Shown here piece after piece: positions 20,124-40,992 of a stretch of DNA of 48,980 nucleotides. The first letter of the stretch is position 1; each line of letters opens with the position of its first letter. A program made the position numbers and the translations under genes. The stretch lies in the sequence record NC_105619.1; one strand, 5' to 3'. The DNA comes from a phage. The notes below the pieces were generated by a model. The model was not told the DNA's origin. It saw only the letters and a program-made list of their open reading frames with translations, and did no database searches.

Positions 20124-21078
20124 AATACATGTTCGGAGTGAAAGGAATTGGCATTGAAATGTTTATATTGAAGGGGAATCGCGCTCCGCTTTGGGTGGAA
20201 TAGTTACCTACTCTTGTTCCGGGGGCGCTTCTCACGTTACCGCCGCTCATACACACGCCCTTGTATCGAATGTTATTATATCCACCTGTAACTCTGCATA
20301 TTGTACCAGTTCTAAGTATTGGGAAAAATCCACCACACCACTGCCACCCGTCATTTATCGCCATAGTCCCACCGAGAACAAAAGGACGTCGAACGCTTGA
20401 GAAAACGATCTGACCAGCAGGATTGCTCATAGTGATTCCGGGGCCGGGAGGTGGTGGGGTGTTATTAAATATTACGAGTTGAACGTATACGCTCGCGCCA
20501 ACGTCATCAATACCGTTATAGTTTGCGTCTCTGCACCATATTGTATTCCCGTCAGATTCCAGTGTTACATTTGGGTTATCCCACATACCGAAAGGAACAC
20601 CCTGGACTGGCAACTGAGCCTGACCGTTAACTTGGATACCTCCAACAAATGCCGCGCTCATCAACCTGGCGTTATTCGGTATCGCCGCGAAGTTCGTTGA
20701 ATCGCTAACAAGTATCCCCTGATTTCCAGCCTGAGCGGGGAGAATTTCGTAACAGTTGCCATAAAACCTCATCCTTCTTCCACCATGACCGTTAAAATTA
20801 CCTACCGTTATTCTCCCGGTTGAATCATTAACCTTCTGAAAGCTGGTTAAATAATACACCTCCGGGATGTAATCCATGTCGTCTATGTAGATAGCCTGAG
20901 ATGGAAGGCAAAAAGCGGTAGATCCTGGACTCATTTGCAGACCAAAATCAAAAACCGATCCAGATGAATCAACCCCGTCCGCTTGTATTGGTCCGCACCA
21001 TGACGGGGCGCGAAGTCCCGAGGTTATCTCCATTGCCGGACGACCGTCATTTAGATTTATGTATATTCCTTGTCCCAT
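20122..21078 (-). CDS. hypothetical Gly/Asn-rich protein co-transcribed with cor (possible receptor-binding / adhesin-like protein)
   Basis: Start moved to ATG (residue 4 of track ORF); overlaps cor stop; Gly/Asn/Ser-rich with PPPPGPG linker; no signal peptide. Confidence 0.4.
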   Translation of the reverse strand: MGQGIYINLNDGRPAMEITSGLRAPSWCGPIQADGVDSSGSVFDFGLQMSPGSTAFCLPSQAIYIDDMDYIPEVYYLTSFQKVNDSTGRITVGNFNGHGGRRMRFYGNCYEILPAQAGNQGILVSDSTNFAAIPNNARLMSAAFVGGIQVNGQAQLPVQGVPFGMWDNPNVTLESDGNTIWCRDANYNGIDDVGASVYVQLVIFNNTPPPPGPGITMSNPAGQIVFSSVRRPFVLGGTMAINDGWQWCGGFFPILRTGTICRVTGGYNNIRYKGVCMSGGNVRSAPGTRVGNYSTQSGARFPFNINISMPIPFTPNMY

Positions 21079-21080
21079 AA

Positions 21081-21311
21081 TTACCACTCTTTAGTTTTGA
21101 TTGATACCTTTCCGCTGAAGTTACCCTGATCGTCGTCGGATGACAGACCTTTGAATCGCATATCGATTTCGCCAGCCGGAACCTTCTTACCGTCAACGAA
21201 TCGCATCATGCAAGATCCGTAAGCGTAAGTAACGCAGTCTCCATTTTTAAGATTCTGAGCGCAACCAGTCAGGATAAATGCAGCAGCAATAATGGTGATT
21301 AACTTTTTCAT
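21081..21311 (-). CDS. cor: Cor-like superinfection-exclusion lipoprotein
   Basis: 76 aa; signal peptide MKKLITIIAAAFILTGC with lipobox LTGC; size and position next to tail genes as for cor/llp-type lipoproteins of FhuA-dependent phages. Confidence 0.55.
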   Translation of the reverse strand: MKKLITIIAAAFILTGCAQNLKNGDCVTYAYGSCMMRFVDGKKVPAGEIDMRFKGLSSDDDQGNFSGKVSIKTKEW

Positions 21312-21337
21312 TTGTATGTCCTCGTTGTTAGTGTGAT

Positions 21338-21366
21338 TGCATTGTATGTCTCATTTACTTTTATTG
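21338..21366 (-). promoter_or_regulatory. sigma70-like promoter for cor operon (TTGCAA-N17-TACAAT on minus strand)
   Basis: Read on minus strand upstream of cor ATG. Confidence 0.5.
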
Positions 21367-21778
21367 CAATAGCACGATTACAATTTTTTCGTGTAACTGG
21401 TGTCTATTTTTGTAACCGGAAGTGGTGTTACAAAATCCACCCCATCCGACCGCAGAGGGATATGATAAAAACTCTATATAATATATATAGATAGATAATA
21501 TTTAATTTTAGCTTTATATATATAATTATTGTTGTGTAACAGTTGTCTATCGTGTAACTGGTGATTTGATTGATTCGTCAAATTTCTATCATATATGTTC
21601 AAAATTTAATCAATATGGATTCTACTTGTAGCTATCTCTGTATTTCTAAGAAAAAGCGGTTACAAGTATTACACAGTAGACATCACACAAAAATAGACTT
21701 AAGCCATTGATTCCGTTAATGCTGGTTGTAACTTGAGCGATATAGACACGCTATTACACATCAATTACATGTATCCGA

Positions 21779-21806
21779 TTGACTAAACGCTGTTAATGGC
21801 TATAAT
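21779..21806 (+). promoter_or_regulatory. near-consensus sigma70 promoter (TTGACT-N16-TATAAT) for recombination operon
   Basis: TTGACT 21779-21784, TATAAT 21801-21806, ~30 nt upstream of RBS AAGGAGA. Confidence 0.6.
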
Positions 21807-21837
21807 GGATTCATCGTAAACGAAGGAGATAAACGCA

Positions 21838-22902
21838 ATGTTCCAAGTATTCACATCAAGTCAGCTTTCTAATGACGAGTATCATAGCAACGAAGGTTGG
21901 GCGGCAGAGTATGTAAGCGGTTCGAGCCTTGCAGAAATTTATCAGACTTGCCCGGCTAACTGGCGATTCAAGAAGAACGAGACGACTAAAGCGCTGGAGT
22001 TTGGTACTCAGTCGCACACCAACTTTGAGAGCCGAGATCTGTTTACTGCATCGTATGCGCGTTGTCCGGCTCCGGCAGAGTTTAAAGATCTCATTACTTC
22101 GCAGGCGGCGCTGGCAGCAAAATTAAAATCATTCGGCCTGAAAGGTACATCCGGAAAGCAGTACCCGGACCTCATCAAAATGATGGTTGATTGTGGCGAA
22201 GACCTTAACGTTCAATACCTGATTGAACTGATCGCAGAAGCTGAGGCGCGCGCTGAAGGAAAGAAACTCGTCGACGCTGATAAATACGACGCCTGCATGA
22301 AGATGAGAGCTATACTTGAACAGAACCCCGATCATGAAGCGTGCATCAACAGCGAAACAGCGCAGCGTGAAATCTCAATCTTCGGTGAAATATCCGGCGT
22401 CAAGGTTAAGGTTCGACTAGATCATCTGGACTACAAAGAGAATGTACCAGGTCGCGTACTGACTGGTTATGATGAGAATGGTGATCCGGTATTTGAAGAC
22501 GTAATTTTCCCGGAAGCACTGATTATCACAGATTTCAAAACTACGATGAGCGCCAACCCGTTAGAGTTCCCTAGACTGGCATACAATCACGGCTATTACC
22601 TGAAGATGGCATTGCAGCATGACCTGCTACGTCGCGCAATCCAGGCTGGCGCTTTTGAAGGAAACTTCCCGGAAGATATTCCGATCGTAGTTCGATTGCT
22701 TGCGCAGGAGAAAAAAGAGCCTTATATCGCACTGGCTTACCGTATGACTATGGAGCAAATCAGGATCGGTCGTAACCAGTACATTAGCGTAGTCCACACT
22801 TACAAGGCTTGCTCTGAAATGGATGTTTGGCCTGGGTACGCTGGCGACGCAAGCGAGATCGAACTTGAAACGCCATCATGGGTGCGTTACCAAAATAAGT
22901 AA
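21838..22902 (+). CDS. PD-(D/E)XK-family recombination exonuclease (RecE/YqaJ-like)
   Basis: Motif ..RLDHLDY.. and ..IITDFKT.. (D..D/ExK); first gene of recombination block with Erf-like and SSB genes. Confidence 0.55.
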   Translation: MFQVFTSSQLSNDEYHSNEGWAAEYVSGSSLAEIYQTCPANWRFKKNETTKALEFGTQSHTNFESRDLFTASYARCPAPAEFKDLITSQAALAAKLKSFGLKGTSGKQYPDLIKMMVDCGEDLNVQYLIELIAEAEARAEGKKLVDADKYDACMKMRAILEQNPDHEACINSETAQREISIFGEISGVKVKVRLDHLDYKENVPGRVLTGYDENGDPVFEDVIFPEALIITDFKTTMSANPLEFPRLAYNHGYYLKMALQHDLLRRAIQAGAFEGNFPEDIPIVVRLLAQEKKEPYIALAYRMTMEQIRIGRNQYISVVHTYKACSEMDVWPGYAGDASEIELETPSWVRYQNK

Positions 22903-25872: not shown

Positions 25873-26808
25873 TTAGAGTAGGTCACTTGCTGAGAATAAT
25901 TTGGCTTGCATTCCTGAACGGTATCCTCCCGGATTCGGGATGATTATTTTTAATTGTCGGTCATCTGCCATATACAAAGTTTCTTTGTCAGACGGTTCGC
26001 ATGCCACCCTTACCTCCCGATCCCCTTTGTATCTGTACGCAACCATCTCGAGGTTTTCAGGGGTGAAGCAGGCCCACACCTCCTGCTTTGTGTGAAATGC
26101 AATATGCTGGGCATCAATCCAGTTCAGGCATAAGTAGATCGCCTTTCCAGTTTTACCAGTCACGGCAACCGAGCAACTCGTGTATTTCTTCGCGTAGAAT
26201 GACTCCCTTCCTTCTTCATCAATAATCAAAATATTGCAAAACTCGTCATCAAGCCCGTTCTCGTGCACAAGTTGACACGGTATGGTGTGAAATACGCTCT
26301 CACTGCCATCCTCGCGACGTTTTACGCCAACGTCGAATGATTCAGTAGGCAGAGACTCAAACATGCTTAGAGGTGTGTTTATGCGCTTCTCTGTGCGCAC
26401 CATAACTTTCATCACTGCATCGTGGTCTGCCATCATAACATTAACACCAGCTACAGGAGTTCGGCGCGCTTTTTTGTTGGCCTTGACAATGTATTCCTGC
26501 GGAACCTTTCCGAGAAATCTCCCCAGGATGTTTATGCATTCGCTGTACGGCATTCCAGTTAGCTTCATTAGCCAACCGATCCCTGAGTCGTTACCGCATG
26601 AGTTGCAGATCGCGCCGCCGTCGCCCGGAGTATTCAGGTTGTCAGTCCAGCGAAAACGGTCTTTGCCGCCGCAGTTAGGGCAAGGTTGGTGCTTCTTGTT
26701 GAAAACCTCGTTAGGTAATCCGCATACGGACTGGAACGCCTCGCGCCATAACCCCTTCATATACGGCAATACGTCCTCTTTCTGAAACATCATAAATTCT
26801 TCGTTCAC
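25873..26808 (-). CDS. DNA primase (zinc-ribbon type)
   Basis: N-terminal zinc ribbon ..CPNCGGKDRFRW..CNSCGN..; adjacent divergent helicase. Confidence 0.55.
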   Translation of the reverse strand: MNEEFMMFQKEDVLPYMKGLWREAFQSVCGLPNEVFNKKHQPCPNCGGKDRFRWTDNLNTPGDGGAICNSCGNDSGIGWLMKLTGMPYSECINILGRFLGKVPQEYIVKANKKARRTPVAGVNVMMADHDAVMKVMVRTEKRINTPLSMFESLPTESFDVGVKRREDGSESVFHTIPCQLVHENGLDDEFCNILIIDEEGRESFYAKKYTSCSVAVTGKTGKAIYLCLNWIDAQHIAFHTKQEVWACFTPENLEMVAYRYKGDREVRVACEPSDKETLYMADDRQLKIIIPNPGGYRSGMQAKLFSASDLL

Positions 26809-26868: not shown

Positions 26869-27321
26869 TTAACTAAAAATGCTATTGGTCGTCCCGATAT
26901 CTTCCTTCTTCACCACTCGCATAAACTTCTTGTTCTTGCATCGCTTCTCAAGGCACTTACCGTTACCGTCAAACTTGAGGTCGAATCGCAACCATGCCGC
27001 GCGGTATCCTTTACACCCCTGGCGACGGTAAGCGCGATGCGCAGCTTCAGCACCTTGCCATGAAATCATATTGCGTTCTTTCCAGCCCTGCACCGTCTGA
27101 TTGCTAACCTTCAGAGCCTTTGCGCAGGCCGCCGGGCCGCCGTAATATTCGATAAGGGCATCAAGTCTCGCTCGCAGTCCGGCGCGCGTTTCTTCTTTAT
27201 GAATATAGAACCCGCAACGCTGGCGAGGCTTTTTATCTTTACCGCGCCGTGTTCCGTTGTTACCATTGATGTGACGTTTATCGATTTCACCAGTTGATTC
27301 TGCGATACGTTGAATACTCAT
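26869..27321 (-). CDS. hypothetical basic protein with HTH-like segment
   Basis: ..AACAKALKVSNQTVQGWKERN.. resembles an HTH recognition helix; Lys/Arg-rich. Confidence 0.3.
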   Translation of the reverse strand: MSIQRIAESTGEIDKRHINGNNGTRRGKDKKPRQRCGFYIHKEETRAGLRARLDALIEYYGGPAACAKALKVSNQTVQGWKERNMISWQGAEAAHRAYRRQGCKGYRAAWLRFDLKFDGNGKCLEKRCKNKKFMRVVKKEDIGTTNSIFS

Positions 27322-27332
27322 CTTGATTCCCC

Positions 27333-27377
27333 TATAGCACTTTTTGCTAAAAACGTTTACTTTATGCCGTGTATTAT
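27333..27377 (+). promoter_or_regulatory. early promoter module (TAGCACTTTTTGCTA box + 22 nt + TATTAT) overlapping divergent minus-strand promoter
   Basis: Arms AACGTTTAC/GTAAACGTT flank the -10; minus strand reads TTGAAT-N17-TATAAT over the same -10. Confidence 0.5.
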
Positions 27378-27408: not shown

Positions 27409-29433
27409 ATGGCCGTGACAATGAACATTAAAAAACAGATTGCATTACTTGGCGAGGACTACATAAAGCGAACTCAGGAGCGATTCACTGTAGGTGAGGT
27501 AGTTCCTTATCCGTATCAGGTTGTTGCTTACGCCGAGATCGCGAAGCGCTTGTCAAACTATGAGCATCCATTCTTCGTTAAAGCGTCTGTATCCGCAGGT
27601 AAGACAATAATATTTGCTATGGTGGCAAAGCAGTGTCAGAAAATGGGCTTAAAAATGCTTGTGCTGGCTCGCCAGGGTGAGATTGTCGATCAGGATAGTG
27701 AGGAGATTGACAACTTCGGGGTAACTAACTCCATATTCTCAGCGTCACTTGGAATCAAGTCCTGCTACTTCCCGATCGTGGTTGGCTCAGAGGGTACTGT
27801 TGCAAATGGCCTCGACAATGAGTTAGCTGATTTCGTACCGCATGTAATTGGGATCGACGAATGTCACCAGGTGGATTGGGAAGACCTTGCGCAAGCCATC
27901 GAGGGTAAGGAAACAATGGAACAAATGAGGGGCGAGAAAGGGAAAATTATCATGGACGGAGATATTCCCCTGATTGGTAATGATGGAAAGCCTTTGCTTG
28001 GAACTAAGCGCAGTCAGTACACGATCGTAATCATGGAAATGATGCGGCGCTGTAAAAAGGTTCACGGTCACGATCTCAGAATATTTGGTATGACTGGATC
28101 TGAATTTCGTGGCGTAGTTCCTATTCTGGTAGAGAATCCGAAAGCATTGGGATTCTGGCGTGAGCGAGTAACTGATATCGACACAAACTATCTGATTGAG
28201 TTCGGCTCTGTCGTTCCGACTATATTCGGATCAACAGACGGAGTTCATTACGATCTTGATAAGTTCAAGGCGTCGAGCGAGGACGGAGTGCAGGACTTTA
28301 CAGAGAAAGACATGAAGGCTATGGAAGATGAGATCCTTCATGATAAATCTCTGACTCAGCGAATCATGCAAATGGTCGCCAAAAAGGCAGAAGAACGCAA
28401 TGCGGTCCTGATTACATGTGCTGGTGTGCGCCACTGCAAAGAGGCAGCGGCAGCACTTCCTCCGGGAAGCACCTATGCAATTATTACTGGAGACACAGAC
28501 AACAAAGCGCGCAAGAAGATTCTTGACGATGTAAGGGCCGGAAAAATTAAATACACATTTCAGGTAATGGCGCTCACTACTGGCGTTAACGTTCCAAATT
28601 GGGATTTCAGTGTAATACTTCGCAAGATAGGATCTCTTACCTTGCTGATTCAGCTTTTGGGTAGGGGTATGCGACTTCTTAAATCCTGGCAGGTTGCTGA
28701 AGGAATGGTTAAGCAAGATCATCTGGTATGGGATTTTGCTGGTACGATGGACGAGTTGGGGCAGCTTTATTTTGACCCTATACTTGAGCAGGCTCAGTTT
28801 CAGAAGCGATTCGAGAACGGAAAAGACCCGAAAACGTGTCCTAAATGTGGTTGCGTAAATAGCTTCTATGCTCGCCGATGCGTTAACGTTATAGACGGTG
28901 AACGTTGCGATCATTTCTGGACTTCTCAGATTTGTGAGGACCAGGTTGACGAGCGCACCGGAAAAATCCTTGTTAAAGGATGCGGCGCAGAGAATGACGT
29001 TGTGGCCCGAGTCTGTCGTTGTTGTGATGTTTCGCTTGTCGATCCTAACCTGAAGTTATCCGGTAAGGCGTACACCAAGAATGACTGGTACGAGGTCAAG
29101 AATTTTGAGGTAACGCTAACCAAAAACCAGAAAGGCATAATATACAAATACACGCTAATTAACGACGAAGGTGATGAGTTCAAGGCGTATGAAAAATTCT
29201 TCCCTGAGTCAGACTCTAAGATTTGCGGTACGCTATGGAAAACGAAAGGTGTATTACCTCATGTGTCAGATCCTAAAATGCGCAGCTACTTTATCGGAAT
29301 GAAGAACGCCATCAAGATTTTGCAATATTCACATCATATTGCTCACCCGGTGCGCGTAACTCATCGTCGCAACCAGAAGAAAGAAGATATTATCTCACGA
29401 AAAGACTTTGGTATGGAGGATATCCCGGAATGA
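27409..29433 (+). CDS. SF2 DEAD/DEAH-box helicase with C-terminal Cys-rich zinc-finger region
   Basis: Walker A ..SAGKT.., DECH box ..IGIDECHQV.., C-terminal CPKCGC..C..C cluster. Confidence 0.8.
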   Translation: MAVTMNIKKQIALLGEDYIKRTQERFTVGEVVPYPYQVVAYAEIAKRLSNYEHPFFVKASVSAGKTIIFAMVAKQCQKMGLKMLVLARQGEIVDQDSEEIDNFGVTNSIFSASLGIKSCYFPIVVGSEGTVANGLDNELADFVPHVIGIDECHQVDWEDLAQAIEGKETMEQMRGEKGKIIMDGDIPLIGNDGKPLLGTKRSQYTIVIMEMMRRCKKVHGHDLRIFGMTGSEFRGVVPILVENPKALGFWRERVTDIDTNYLIEFGSVVPTIFGSTDGVHYDLDKFKASSEDGVQDFTEKDMKAMEDEILHDKSLTQRIMQMVAKKAEERNAVLITCAGVRHCKEAAAALPPGSTYAIITGDTDNKARKKILDDVRAGKIKYTFQVMALTTGVNVPNWDFSVILRKIGSLTLLIQLLGRGMRLLKSWQVAEGMVKQDHLVWDFAGTMDELGQLYFDPILEQAQFQKRFENGKDPKTCPKCGCVNSFYARRCVNVIDGERCDHFWTSQICEDQVDERTGKILVKGCGAENDVVARVCRCCDVSLVDPNLKLSGKAYTKNDWYEVKNFEVTLTKNQKGIIYKYTLINDEGDEFKAYEKFFPESDSKICGTLWKTKGVLPHVSDPKMRSYFIGMKNAIKILQYSHHIAHPVRVTHRRNQKKEDIISRKDFGMEDIPE

Positions 29434-34862: not shown

Positions 34863-36431
34863 TTAACCCATCAGTCGAGGATTGATGAAAACAATATCAT
34901 CAATACGGCAAGTGTAGTTCATCTCTTCGAGCGTAATCAGAAGGCTGTCGATTCGCTCAGATACTTTCTGTTGACCGTTGAACGGCGTAACGTTCCGGCA
35001 CTTTGCAACAATACTATGAATAGGTGCGCGCCCTTTGTTCTTCTTTGCGATCTCAGTGATAACATCAATCAGCTTACGAGATTCAGCCTCATCACCAGCA
35101 TACCCGGCAGCGCTGGCAGACGACAGATAAGTTCTGGAAAGCTCATTGAAAATCATGATAGCTTCCTGCATTGTTTCAAGGTCAATCTCACGGTTGGAAC
35201 GGTTCGGTGATTCACCCTCCCAATTCTTGATCGTGTGTAGAACTGAAGCAATACGCAAAGCGTGCTTATCGAACTTGCCGAGATGACCGCGTAGCATTGA
35301 GTGAGAGTATTTCCCCCCTGCGGCGAAATCAGGCTCCATCGCCTGGCGTGCAAGGTTTAATTCACGCATAGCATTACGGCTCACAGAGAGAACAACGTTG
35401 TCCTCCTTCATGATGTTGTGCACTAGTCTGTAATATTTGCTAACCAGTCCGCGATCGACTTCTTTATACAGTGCATCACCATTTTCATCACAAAGAATAC
35501 GAGTACCTAAAAGCGGTTCCTCTCGAACCAGGAGGAAACGCTCAGATACACCGATACCGCGCTGGCCTGCGTCCATGATACCCTTGATTGTTTCATCCTG
35601 AGCAATTACGCAGATTGAACCGACAGGACACAGAGACAAGTTATTGTCCTGGTTTGAACGAGCAACCTCCATATGGTTTTTATCCCACGCCTTAAGGATA
35701 AGCTCACTGTTAGATTTCTTATCTGAACCGCCATACGTAAGCCCGAGCAATGTATTGATTGCCGTTGCCTCGTCAGATATTACGGAAAAGTGACCTTGCA
35801 CTGCCGCCACTTTCGCAAGACCTTCAGGTGTAGGATCTGATACCGCGAAAACAATATCAGCCATCTTCTTGATCTTCTCTTCCAGTTTTTCTTTGTCCTC
35901 GTACAGAGCCGCCGTAGTGTTGCCTTTAGGATCGTTCTTGATTTCCTTCTCAACCTGACGTAGCTGACTGGTTAAACGGATACGTTCCTTTTTGCGCTCT
36001 TCATTCAGTCGCTGAATCTCCGCACGCATAGGTGTAATCGCCGCTGAGTTAATCGCGGACTTACCTGTTGATGGTGGCTGGCTGATTACCATGTAAAGCG
36101 CTGTCGGCTGTTCCTCTCCGTGATATTGCACCCAAAACTTCCCGAGCATCGCTGCTGAGATGCAACCGATAAAATGAGCATACGCGGATGAAACCGGGAA
36201 CTGGACTGATTCAGCTTTTGCTTTTGCATATTCGAATACCAGGTTATCGCCACCTAACGAAATCAGAGGGAACTTATCGTTTCCGCTGTTGATATCGATC
36301 GGATCTTGCCAAAAAGAAACTGAATCCCCGTAACTGTTTTCACGAATTGCGATCGCCACCGGATTCACTCCAGTGCTATTTGCGATCTCAATAATTTGTT
36401 GGTAATTCAGTTTTGGCTTAATGTTAAACAT
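34863..36431 (-). CDS. hypothetical protein, possible P-loop-like ATPase
   Basis: Start at internal ATG (residue 22) with RBS AAGGAG; segment ..ISQPPSTGKSA.. loosely Walker-A-like. Confidence 0.45.
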   Translation of the reverse strand: MFNIKPKLNYQQIIEIANSTGVNPVAIAIRENSYGDSVSFWQDPIDINSGNDKFPLISLGGDNLVFEYAKAKAESVQFPVSSAYAHFIGCISAAMLGKFWVQYHGEEQPTALYMVISQPPSTGKSAINSAAITPMRAEIQRLNEERKKERIRLTSQLRQVEKEIKNDPKGNTTAALYEDKEKLEEKIKKMADIVFAVSDPTPEGLAKVAAVQGHFSVISDEATAINTLLGLTYGGSDKKSNSELILKAWDKNHMEVARSNQDNNLSLCPVGSICVIAQDETIKGIMDAGQRGIGVSERFLLVREEPLLGTRILCDENGDALYKEVDRGLVSKYYRLVHNIMKEDNVVLSVSRNAMRELNLARQAMEPDFAAGGKYSHSMLRGHLGKFDKHALRIASVLHTIKNWEGESPNRSNREIDLETMQEAIMIFNELSRTYLSSASAAGYAGDEAESRKLIDVITEIAKKNKGRAPIHSIVAKCRNVTPFNGQQKVSERIDSLLITLEEMNYTCRIDDIVFINPRLMG

Positions 36432-36460
36432 CACAATAAACTCCTTAGTTGACGGTGTGA

Positions 36461-36505
36461 ATGATACACCGCCAATGTTACACGCGTTTTGCAAAAAGTG
36501 CTATT
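36461..36505 (-). promoter_or_regulatory. early promoter module (minus strand)
   Basis: AATAGCACTTTTTGCAAAAC + 22 nt + TATCAT; arms GGTGT/ACACC flank -10. Confidence 0.5.
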
Positions 36506-39792: not shown

Positions 39793-39824
39793 TGCAAATA
39801 TCCTCTGATTGGTTGATGAGATGA

Positions 39825-39869
39825 ATCATACCCGATCGGCAGGGCTGATGTGTTGCAAAAAATGCTATT
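39825..39869 (-). promoter_or_regulatory. early promoter module (minus strand)
   Basis: AATAGCATTTTTTGCAACAC + 22 nt (palindrome CCGATCGG) + TATGAT. Confidence 0.5.
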
Positions 39870-40053
39870 CCAATAGTTGCTCATTATTCCACCAGCAATG
39901 GAATATCTGGAATAATTGCGATCCCGATTGATCTCGAATGATGAAACGTGATTATTGCATGGTGTGCAACAGTTGGTTGATTTGTTGCTGAGATTGCAAT
40001 GATTGTGAGAGGGAGGATTTAGTGTTACCCGGTTCGCCTGGTAGTCATCCCCA

Positions 40054-40075
40054 TTTTTAGCAAAAAGTGCTATCG
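40054..40075 (-). repeat. orphan copy of the box (GATAGCACTTTTTGCTAAAAA) without recognisable -10 at +22
   Basis: Read on minus strand within second AT-rich control region. Confidence 0.4.
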
Positions 40076-40399
40076 ATTACACTTTAACTTGTCACGATTG
40101 TAATATTTGTCTAGAATCGCCATTGTGACAAAATTACGCACTGTGACACCTCACAATATACATATAGATATATGTATATATATAATATATATAGTGTTTT
40201 TTTTATTTATATATATAGATAATTATATTGTAATGGGTGTGTATAGTTGTCTTACATTGTCTAGCGTACTGTTGGCATATTTCTATCTGCATGTTTATAT
40301 ATACAGTACTTTTTTGAGGGTCGTATATTTCTATATGGACTCTAGACAGCTAGACAAATGTTACACGGCTTAAAATCGGCTTGCAGGCATTGACAACTC

Positions 40400-40445
40400 T
40401 ACGTCGCGCTGTAACAATGGCAATTGTTGACACGTTATGACGCCA
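40400..40445 (+). promoter_or_regulatory. tandem sigma70-like promoters with perfect TTGACA -35 boxes upstream of first rightward early gene
   Basis: cattTTGACAactctacgtcgcgctgTAACAAT and aattgTTGACAcgttatgacgcc.. Confidence 0.4.
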
Positions 40446-40476
40446 TTTACACGCAAATAGACAAAGAGGATATATT

Positions 40477-40992
40477 ATGAGCAATACCAATCAGGAATTA
40501 AAAATCACCGACATGATTCGCCTAACCTGCGATGCGATGTACCGCGACAAAGGCATGAGCGAGTTCTCTTTCGTGGCTGATGATATGGCCCTGGAAGGAG
40601 CGCGCTTCTACTTCCGCAACCAGGATGTAAGCGATAGCGATCTTGAGTCTGCCGCTGCCGGATGGGTGGACCAGAACCAGGGCGAGGTAGAGAAGAGATT
40701 CAAGTCTGCTTTCATCACTCCGATCATTACCAGGCACTTTTGCAAGTACGGAAAGGTTGCAAAGGTGAAAGTGGGCCGGAATGACGCCGCAATTACGATG
40801 ATAACCGTTATCGTTACAGACGAAGAGTTTCCGGTGAAGAAGCGCCGCAGCCGGAAGAAAGTTAGCCTGGCCGACTGCCTGGATTCGTTCACGCCTGATA
40901 TTGATGATCTCGAAAAAGGTGATGTGACTGTAAGCACAGTGCGCGACCTGGTTCGCCAGATGAAAGCGCATATTGAGAAATGCGGACTGTAA
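40477..40992 (+). CDS. hypothetical early protein
   Basis: 171-aa ORF, RBS AAAGAGGA, first gene after control region. Confidence 0.5.
   Translation: MSNTNQELKITDMIRLTCDAMYRDKGMSEFSFVADDMALEGARFYFRNQDVSDSDLESAAAGWVDQNQGEVEKRFKSAFITPIITRHFCKYGKVAKVKVGRNDAAITMITVIVTDEEFPVKKRRSRKKVSLADCLDSFTPDIDDLEKGDVTVSTVRDLVRQMKAHIEKCGL

Follow-up and report, generated by a model that had tools for sequence, protein, structure and literature searches.

The replication origins oriL and oriR of phage SPP1 and ori of phage lambda consist of repeated initiator-binding boxes beside an AT-rich region. SPP1 has two such origins, both bound by a single initiator (G38P), and carries a module of exonuclease, annealase and single-stranded DNA-binding protein (SSB) beside its replication genes. 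The origin of the staphylococcal pathogenicity islands (SaPI ori) contains 6–12 penta- or hexanucleotide iterons around an AT-rich centre, running in opposite directions on its two sides; these iterons are element-specific, and a self-loading AAA+ hexameric helicase reads them with its C-terminal winged helix (PMC9371898). For the T1-like phages, papers on the family report neither an origin nor iterons (PMC11447400, PMC7718038), and our survey of the literature for a T1 origin, transcription maps or iterons returned nothing beyond the statements made in these papers for phages TLS and SU57. In this study, we analysed a 48,980-bp stretch of DNA (NC_105619.1, hereafter the window), which is a complete T1-like phage genome (Tunavirus, Drexlerviridae), and characterized the 526-bp non-coding gap between its genes cor and recE (21312..21837; 32% GC vs a genome average of 45.6%), here named E1. 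We conclude that E1 is a previously undescribed, family-wide and duplicated cis element, which is most likely an origin.

In its anatomy, E1 most closely resembles the SaPI ori. Both have short words in opposed orientation, 15 of them in E1, and an AAA+ helicase carrying a C-terminal winged helix is also among the products of the T1-like phage. The two differ in several aspects, however. The words of E1 form three-word arrays with two spacers of ~106–108 bp, whereas the SaPI ori has one AT centre; the SaPI Reps belong to an SF3-like clade (SF, superfamily), whereas the DUF3987 helicase of T1-like phages is related to the minichromosome maintenance proteins (MCM-like, SF6); and the T1-like element is present in two copies per genome, unlike the SaPI ori. 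Unlike E1, oriL of SPP1 lies inside gene 38 and ori of lambda inside O, and the repeats of both are longer than the words of E1 (~19 bp in lambda). E1 is also similar to oriC in that an AT-rich unwinding region is flanked by short phased sites. Nevertheless, no DnaA box is present in E1 or in its second copy, E2, none of the three TTWTNCACA matches of the genome being located there. GATC, which occurs 250 times in the genome, is likewise missing from E1 (21312-21837; ~2.7 expected) and from E2 (40060-40476), and the phage encodes a Dam methylase. The absence of both DnaA boxes and GATC sites argues against an oriC-like mechanism.

Word arrays and the AT tract of E1

The repeated words are strongly clustered in E1. 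TGTAAC occurs 7 times in its 526 bp and 30 times in the genome (binomial P = 2.7e-8), TGTAAY 11 and 63 times (P = 8e-11), and GTCTAY 5 and 21 times (P = 2.5e-6); the maximum in any other segment of 526 bp is 3 TGTAAC, 5 TGTAAY and 2 GTCTAY. The E1 hexamer counts were above the 95th percentile of shuffles in the window as well as in SRT8 and TAH8.

The 15 words, each of 6–7 bp, are arranged in order along the element. A lead word, ATTACA (21377, − strand), stands 15 bp from the L array, which comprises TGTAAC (21392), TGTCTAT (21401) and TGTAAC (21411) on the + strand at spacings of 9 and 10 bp. A single GTTACA (21427, − strand), 16 bp further on, completes the L block (21377..21432) and is separated by 108 bp, including the TA tract, from the M array (21535..21558, + strand), in which TGTAAC (21535), TGTCTAT (21544) and TGTAAC (21553) recur at 9-bp spacing. 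AT-rich spacer 2 (21563..21658; 96 bp, 27% GC) then divides the forward from the reversed arrays. The R1 array (21659..21682, − strand) carries GTTACA (21659), ATTACA (21668) and GTAGACA (21676), 8–9 bp apart, and lies 51 bp from a single TGTAAC (21727, + strand), which in turn is 15 bp from the reversed words of R2, ATAGACA (21742), ATTACA (21753) and ATTACA (21764), all on the − strand. This last group (21727..21769) ends with a word whose start is 15 bp from the −35 hexamer of the predicted recE promoter.

Orientation is tied to position. In the window, 6 forward words lie to the left of the centre of E1 and 1 to the right, compared with 2 and 6 of the reverse words (P = 0.04). When seven lineages were pooled, the figures were 38 left and 8 right for forward words and 9 left and 27 right for reverse words (Fisher P = 1.6e-7), the word sets for these tests having been picked after inspection of the sequences. 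The words of the L block are nearly invariant among 16 aligned sequences.

An earlier note on this DNA had described an inverted repeat, a duplicated longer motif and further copies on the right of E1 as repeated half-sites. The repeats themselves are present: CGTGTAACTGGTG occurs twice (21390-21402 and 21551-21563), the further copies are the GTTACA, ATTACA and TAGACA words at 21659, 21668, 21676, 21742, 21753 and 21764, and TTTTGTAAC-N10-GTTACAAAA is found in the L block, at 21408-21435 rather than at 21405-21428 as first placed. The reading as half-sites was not borne out, because TGTAAC and TGTCTAT form direct three-word arrays, spaced by 9–10 bp (about one helical turn), whose orientation flips across the element.

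AT tract 1 (21459..21533, 12% GC), which contains TATAATATATATAGATAGATA, is a candidate DNA-unwinding element. The alternating tract previously noted in this place is there, at 21475-21530, and this TA tract proper is only 7% GC. Among the 50- and 100-bp segments of the genome, AT tract 1 ranks second for low duplex stability, and it ranks first among those of 200 and 500 bp; a TATATAGATA-like core is retained in many of the sampled genera. The two least stable 100-bp segments are those of E1 and E2 in each of the four complete genomes examined, namely, the window, SRT8, TAH8 and e4/1c. The instability of the TA tract fits a DNA-unwinding element. Extrusion of a cruciform or hairpin by the TA tract and other palindromes was also considered and rejected, the values not being above those of shuffles (z = 0.18, −0.8, −1.9 and −0.8). 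The core consensus of integration host factor gave one match in E1 (21700-21712) and no enrichment.

Conservation of the layout and a second copy, E2

E1 is 92.8% identical to its counterpart in T1 and up to 99.6% identical to those of other isolates, and it matches 62 Tunavirus phage records at 90–99% identity, almost all of which carry no annotation there; no match was found in plasmids or E. coli genomes. Compared with T1, CLB_P3 and SA12KD, E1 shows 91–93.5% identity vs 75–85% at the third codon positions of recE. This slower evolution indicates that E1 is under purifying selection without coding. We conclude that E1 is a cis-acting DNA element rather than a gene. The cor genes of T1 and CLB_P3 (L001, L002) are ~55% identical to the window cor, while the adjoining E1 is 93% identical, which puts a sharp recombination boundary at the cor/E1 junction. 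The retention of E1 at 93% despite the swap of cor, together with its position next to the primase gene in Webervirus, suggests that the element travels with the replication and recombination module.

A gene-free gap of 460–560 bp is located upstream of recE in every lineage sampled, namely, nine besides Tunavirus (Badaguanvirus, Sertoctavirus, Hanrivervirus, Tlsvirus, Warwickvirus, Webervirus, Rogunavirus, the unclassified ETEP102, and e4/1c), with three small genes between the gap and recE in e4/1c. Overall identity to the window E1 drops to ~52% in IME347 and SRT8. The layout persists at the same relative positions, with three forward words at ~72–100, forward words at ~214–250, reversed words at ~335–366 and more words at ~390–455. 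The L slot and its spacing recur in IME347, SRT8, damhaus and mar001J1 with a different word in each, arrays equivalent to M are found at relative positions 214–250 in seven other lineages, and the distance from M to R1, 106 bp in the window, is 77–113 bp in other genera.

What changes between lineages is the word. It is TGTAAC in Tunavirus and Badaguanvirus; TGTAAT in Sertoctavirus, in which the overlapping hexamer GATTAC occurs 8 times; TGTTCT- and TGTTAT-like in Tempevirinae; GTAAC together with GTATAC in ETEP102 and e4/1c; and GTAAGAT in Webervirus (11 copies, shuffle maximum 5). In the E1 of TAH8, GTAAGA is present in 11 copies, whereas shuffles reach 5 at most. The combination of a constant layout and a word particular to each lineage is as predicted for a co-evolving, phage-encoded, sequence-specific binding protein. 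The earlier note had made its interpretation depend on conservation of the repeats in related phages; they are conserved, with distant genera filling the slots with a word of their own.

By contrast, the arrangement of the neighbouring genes is not constant. In the window, E1 is flanked by the lipoprotein gene cor (21081-21311, − strand, ATG at 21311) and by recE, encoding exonuclease VIII (21838-22902, + strand, ATG at 21838), with erf and ssb next. The left neighbour of the gap is in most cases cor or another leftward gene; however, Tlsvirus has a tail-fibre gene there that runs rightward, and Webervirus has the primase gene, in the same direction as recE. Since the left neighbour varies by lineage, the divergent control region that E1 had been taken for is not the conserved property.

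The scan of duplex stability led to E2, which lies in the gap 39793-40476 between two divergent early operons and was missed by the earlier note. The paralogous module (40076..40463) has the same orientation as E1 and holds the least stable 100-bp segment of the genome. Its left half opens with a reversed lead word and continues with forward words at 9-bp intervals (L array, 40076-40148), a TA tract (AT tract, 40157-40232) and forward words (40229-40264); its right half comprises three reversed words 8–10 bp apart (40342-40365), a lone TGTAAC 50 bp on (40410) and a final reversed word, ATAGACA (40457). E2 repeats the syntax of E1 slot for slot, with both spacers about two helical turns shorter. 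The local alignment of E1 with E2 scored 50 in the window (null 22.7 ± 2.5), and 96 (~310 bp), 159 and 93 in SRT8, TAH8 and e4/1c, respectively (nulls ~22 ± 2.5).

Several other features of the E2 region were observed. The right half of E2 and the early gene that comes first on its right (window 40340-40476 and 40477-40992; T1 L034 390-1114) are variable. The right half exists in two forms among Tunavirus genomes: T1 has GATTAAC three times at 9-bp intervals, two of them as GATTAACA, in place of the CTAGACA, CTAGACA and GTTACA of the window. The early gene encodes proteins that in T1 and the window differ in the N-terminal ~120 residues and are identical in the last 45 (59% overall); it is possible that this gene encodes an E2-specific binding protein. 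To the left, an E2-specific segment (39873-40045; T1 L034 1-106) lies between two tandem leftward promoters of the ATAGCAC/ATAGCAT type and abounds in words resembling ATTGCAATGATTG and GATTATTGCA; its conservation between e4/1c and ETEP102 exceeds 90%. The repeated words of the GATTRTTGC type to the left of E2 were uninformative.

Candidate word-reading proteins and the origin reading

Two phage proteins are the best candidates for reading the words. The first is the DUF3987 helicase (34863..36494, − strand; Pfam DUF3987 E = 3e-42), which has a C-terminal winged helix. Its AlphaFold model (predicted local distance difference test, pLDDT, 89) has MCM subunits as the best folds in the PDB, and its C-terminus reads H-b-H-H-b-b. 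DUF3987 proteins have been described as MCM-related replicative helicases bearing a winged helix-turn-helix (HTH) at the C-terminus (PMC4889955). The protein is unusually invariant, with 99.6–100% identity over 56 Tunavirus records; its open reading frame (ORF) as listed has a TTG start, which lies upstream of the conserved ATG by 21 codons. The second is a Cro/YdaS-like HTH protein (26869..27321, − strand; PHROG 2856) encoded beside the primase, for which the Pfam P22_Cro match (E = 4e-5) is below the curated cutoff and whose family is restricted to T1-like phages. Also encoded are a T7-type zinc-ribbon/Toprim primase (25873-26808) and an SF2 helicase (27409-29433, + strand), residues 4-125 of which form a PHROG of their own with unknown function (phrog_34481) and are a further candidate DNA-binding module. 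No O-like or G38P-like initiator was found among the window proteins, and sequence searches of the PDB with the HTH protein and the helicase gave no useful matches.

A comparison of two mosaic genomes links these candidates to the words. The phages e4/1c and ETEP102 have nearly the same word set, and the left part and core of their E1 are 75% identical. Both the Cro-like HTH protein and the DUF3987 helicase are 90% identical between them, compared with 65% for the primase, 64% for TerS, 62% for the SF2 helicase, 57% for SSB, 50% for RecE, 49% for TerL and 47% for Erf. These values suggest a tie between the E1 words and the HTH protein plus DUF3987, from one genome pair and without separating the two. 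Co-variation of the recognition helices, sought in the HTH alignment and the helicase C-terminus, was too modest to assign the binder. The comparison lends no support to the terminase as the reader of the words.

Taking these data together, the reading that we favour is that E1 is an iteron-type replication origin, which from its sequence appears to have slightly less than an even chance of being correct. Given the iteron-origin anatomy, with the SaPI ori as the closest match, we propose that a phage protein assembles on the arrays of E1 and E2. The best candidate would be the DUF3987 helicase, binding the word arrays through its C-terminal winged helix, and the Cro-like HTH protein beside the primase might bind in addition or in its place. 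Once assembled on the oppositely oriented arrays, oligomers would deform the AT spacer and melt it; loading of the helicase and of the T7-type zinc-ribbon primase would come next, and host DNA polymerase III would copy outward in both directions. E2, at ~40.2 kb, would be a second origin, and the flanking sigma-70 promoters (cor on the left, recE-erf-ssb on the right) may activate the origin by transcription. The full form of this model, in which the T1 family has its two origins in E1 and E2, fired by a self-loading DUF3987 helicase that reads lineage-specific hexamer iterons via its winged helix, is possible, and we put it forward tentatively.

A number of observations weigh against an origin. 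The GC skew of the genome follows gene orientation and transcription and gives no origin signal. The SaPI ori directly follows rep, whereas the candidate helicase gene lies 13 kb from E1 and the primase gene 4 kb away; the element is next to the primase only in Webervirus. E2 adjoins the mapped T1 genome end and the pac region. Promoters are plentiful at the junctions that hold the two copies, and the words might accordingly be operators. In T1, E2 has TGTTAATC/GATTAACA in slots where E1 has TGTAAC, and the DUF3987 helicases of T1 and the window are 99.6% identical although the right halves of their E2 differ. Different words in E1 and E2 of T1 with an invariant helicase imply that a model of one protein and one word is too simple or incomplete. 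Moreover, the recognition regions of the HTH protein and of the winged helix vary only modestly between genera.

Competing readings and significance for the family

The alternative that survives best, a serious one that we nevertheless consider less likely, is that E1 is an operator field. The Cro-like HTH or another early protein would bind the arrays of E1 and E2, the spacers of ~10 turns would be looped to switch divergent early or middle promoters, and the AT tracts would be promoter or UP-like DNA. Sigma-70-like promoters are indeed present at the edges of both elements, and both early operons diverge from the E2 junction. In E1, matches for the two promoters previously predicted were found: one for cor, TTGCAA-N17-TACAAT (21341..21369, − strand), which matches the consensus at 9/12 positions, and one for recE-erf-ssb, TTGACT-N16-TATAAT (21779..21806, + strand), which matches at 11/12. 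The predicted cor promoter is kept within Tunavirus, other genera having a leftward promoter of the ATAGCAC type in the same place; the recE promoter is conserved across genera, TTGACTAAA...TAtAAT being retained in Tunavirinae and Tempevirinae, and the T1 and SA12KD records carry a predicted promoter at its position. The word arrays adjoin the promoter hexamers without overlapping them, and the number of promoter-like matches in E1 is at the shuffle level (4 found, 4.0 expected). The L and R2 arrays lie upstream of the start sites of cor and recE, at ~45–85 bp, with words that read GTTACA toward the promoter, and inheritance of the HTH protein follows that of the word set (90% identity vs 62–65% for the products of flanking genes).

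Other properties of E1 do not fit operators. Direct triple arrays of 6–7 bp words are atypical of a dimeric Cro-type HTH protein, and the half-sites of the one palindrome present are separated by 19 bp; no good promoter match lies within 100 bp of the M and R1 arrays; the element of Webervirus and Tlsvirus keeps its full layout away from a divergent junction; and operators give no reason for conserved tracts of least-stable duplex at the centres of the elements. The earlier note had proposed operators or iterons, possibly with an origin or an unwinding element. Its observation is confirmed, and its interpretation is partly supported and considerably extended here: the clustered, conserved repeats and the unstable TA tract stand, and operators in the form of palindromic half-sites do not.

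The promoters also bear on repeats previously described in these phages, the 21-nt intergenic repeats ATAGCAC-N3-TTGnTAAAA of T1-like phages reported in the TLS paper (PMC11447400). ATAGCAC occurs 22 times in the window (5.1 expected), oriented with transcription, for example at 27334(+), 29843(+), 36504(−), 41262(+) and 47115(+). A degenerate copy of the repeat is present in E1 (21369..21375, + strand), where it abuts the cor −35 hexamer and shares base 21369 with it. The other copies directly precede a −35-like TTGyTA(AAA), which is followed by a TATAGT/TATAAT −10, suggesting that the 21-nt repeats are the upstream halves of a conserved promoter class. At 21369, the box is followed by GATTACAATTTT instead of nnnTTGnTAAAA, no −10 is found at the right spacing, and T1 has ATAGAGC; this box is not a full member of the class. 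The TGTAAC-type arrays are distinct from these single boxes, are confined to E1 and E2, and were not described in the TLS paper.

It is improbable that E1 is a pac-like recognition element for the terminase, whose words would wrap a small-terminase ring, with E2 as the real pac and E1 as a second or vestigial one. The pac sites of P1 and SPP1 do have short repeats flanking the cleavage region; however, classical work on T1 is reported to have described a single pac. An annotated 2.8-kb terminal repeat begins at position 1 of the T1 record, which maps to ~39955 of the window (T1 base 2 to 39955), ~120 bp to the left of the E2 module, and it is in this untranslated region that the SU57 paper (PMC7718038) located the pac of T1-like phages. 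This end, however, falls in the E2-specific left segment, which is absent from E1, and no deposited genome record starts at E1. TerS (64%) and TerL (49%) do not track the words between e4/1c and ETEP102, unlike the HTH protein and DUF3987 (90%), which makes a pac-like role for E1 unlikely. The pac site may instead be the E2-specific left segment itself (39873-40045).

Least probable is that E1 encodes a small protein or non-coding RNA: the gap is gene-free, as first reported, since in an alignment of 16 related sequences its three internal ORFs are ruled out as genes by frameshifts and non-synonymous drift (ORF60 is frameshifted in 7/15 relatives; ORF42 is broken in 3/15, two of them with frameshifts (L022, L026) and the third being the divergent IME347; and the 46-codon ORF46, at 21570-21710, or CPTT1_049, is intact in all 15 Tunavirus sequences and annotated in T1 AY216660.1 and ULIM2, but is absent from IME347 and other genera and has almost exclusively non-synonymous substitutions, so it is probably an annotation artefact), Rfam gave no match at E <= 1 on either strand of 21000-22000, and the long-range inverted repeats do not nest into a fold and local DNA folds are no better than those of shuffles.

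In summary, T1 belongs to the seven classical T phages and frequently contaminates laboratories, and the Drexlerviridae are abundant and present in phage therapy collections. With a defined cis element that occurs twice per genome, an old open question on a classical phage becomes directly testable. If the origin reading is confirmed, E1 would be the first origin for Drexlerviridae, would make an MCM-like initiator accessible to experiment in E. coli, and would explain a block of ~0.5 kb that is left unannotated in most of the matching records listed; it would also mark a region to spare when T1-like phages are engineered and provide a handle for swaps of replication specificity. If the model of two origins fired by the DUF3987 helicase is true, it would represent the counterpart, in a bacterial virus, of head-to-head MCM loading and an analogue, in a virulent phage, of the SaPI Rep/ori system, and the switches of word between genera would constitute a code of replication specificity (incompatibility).

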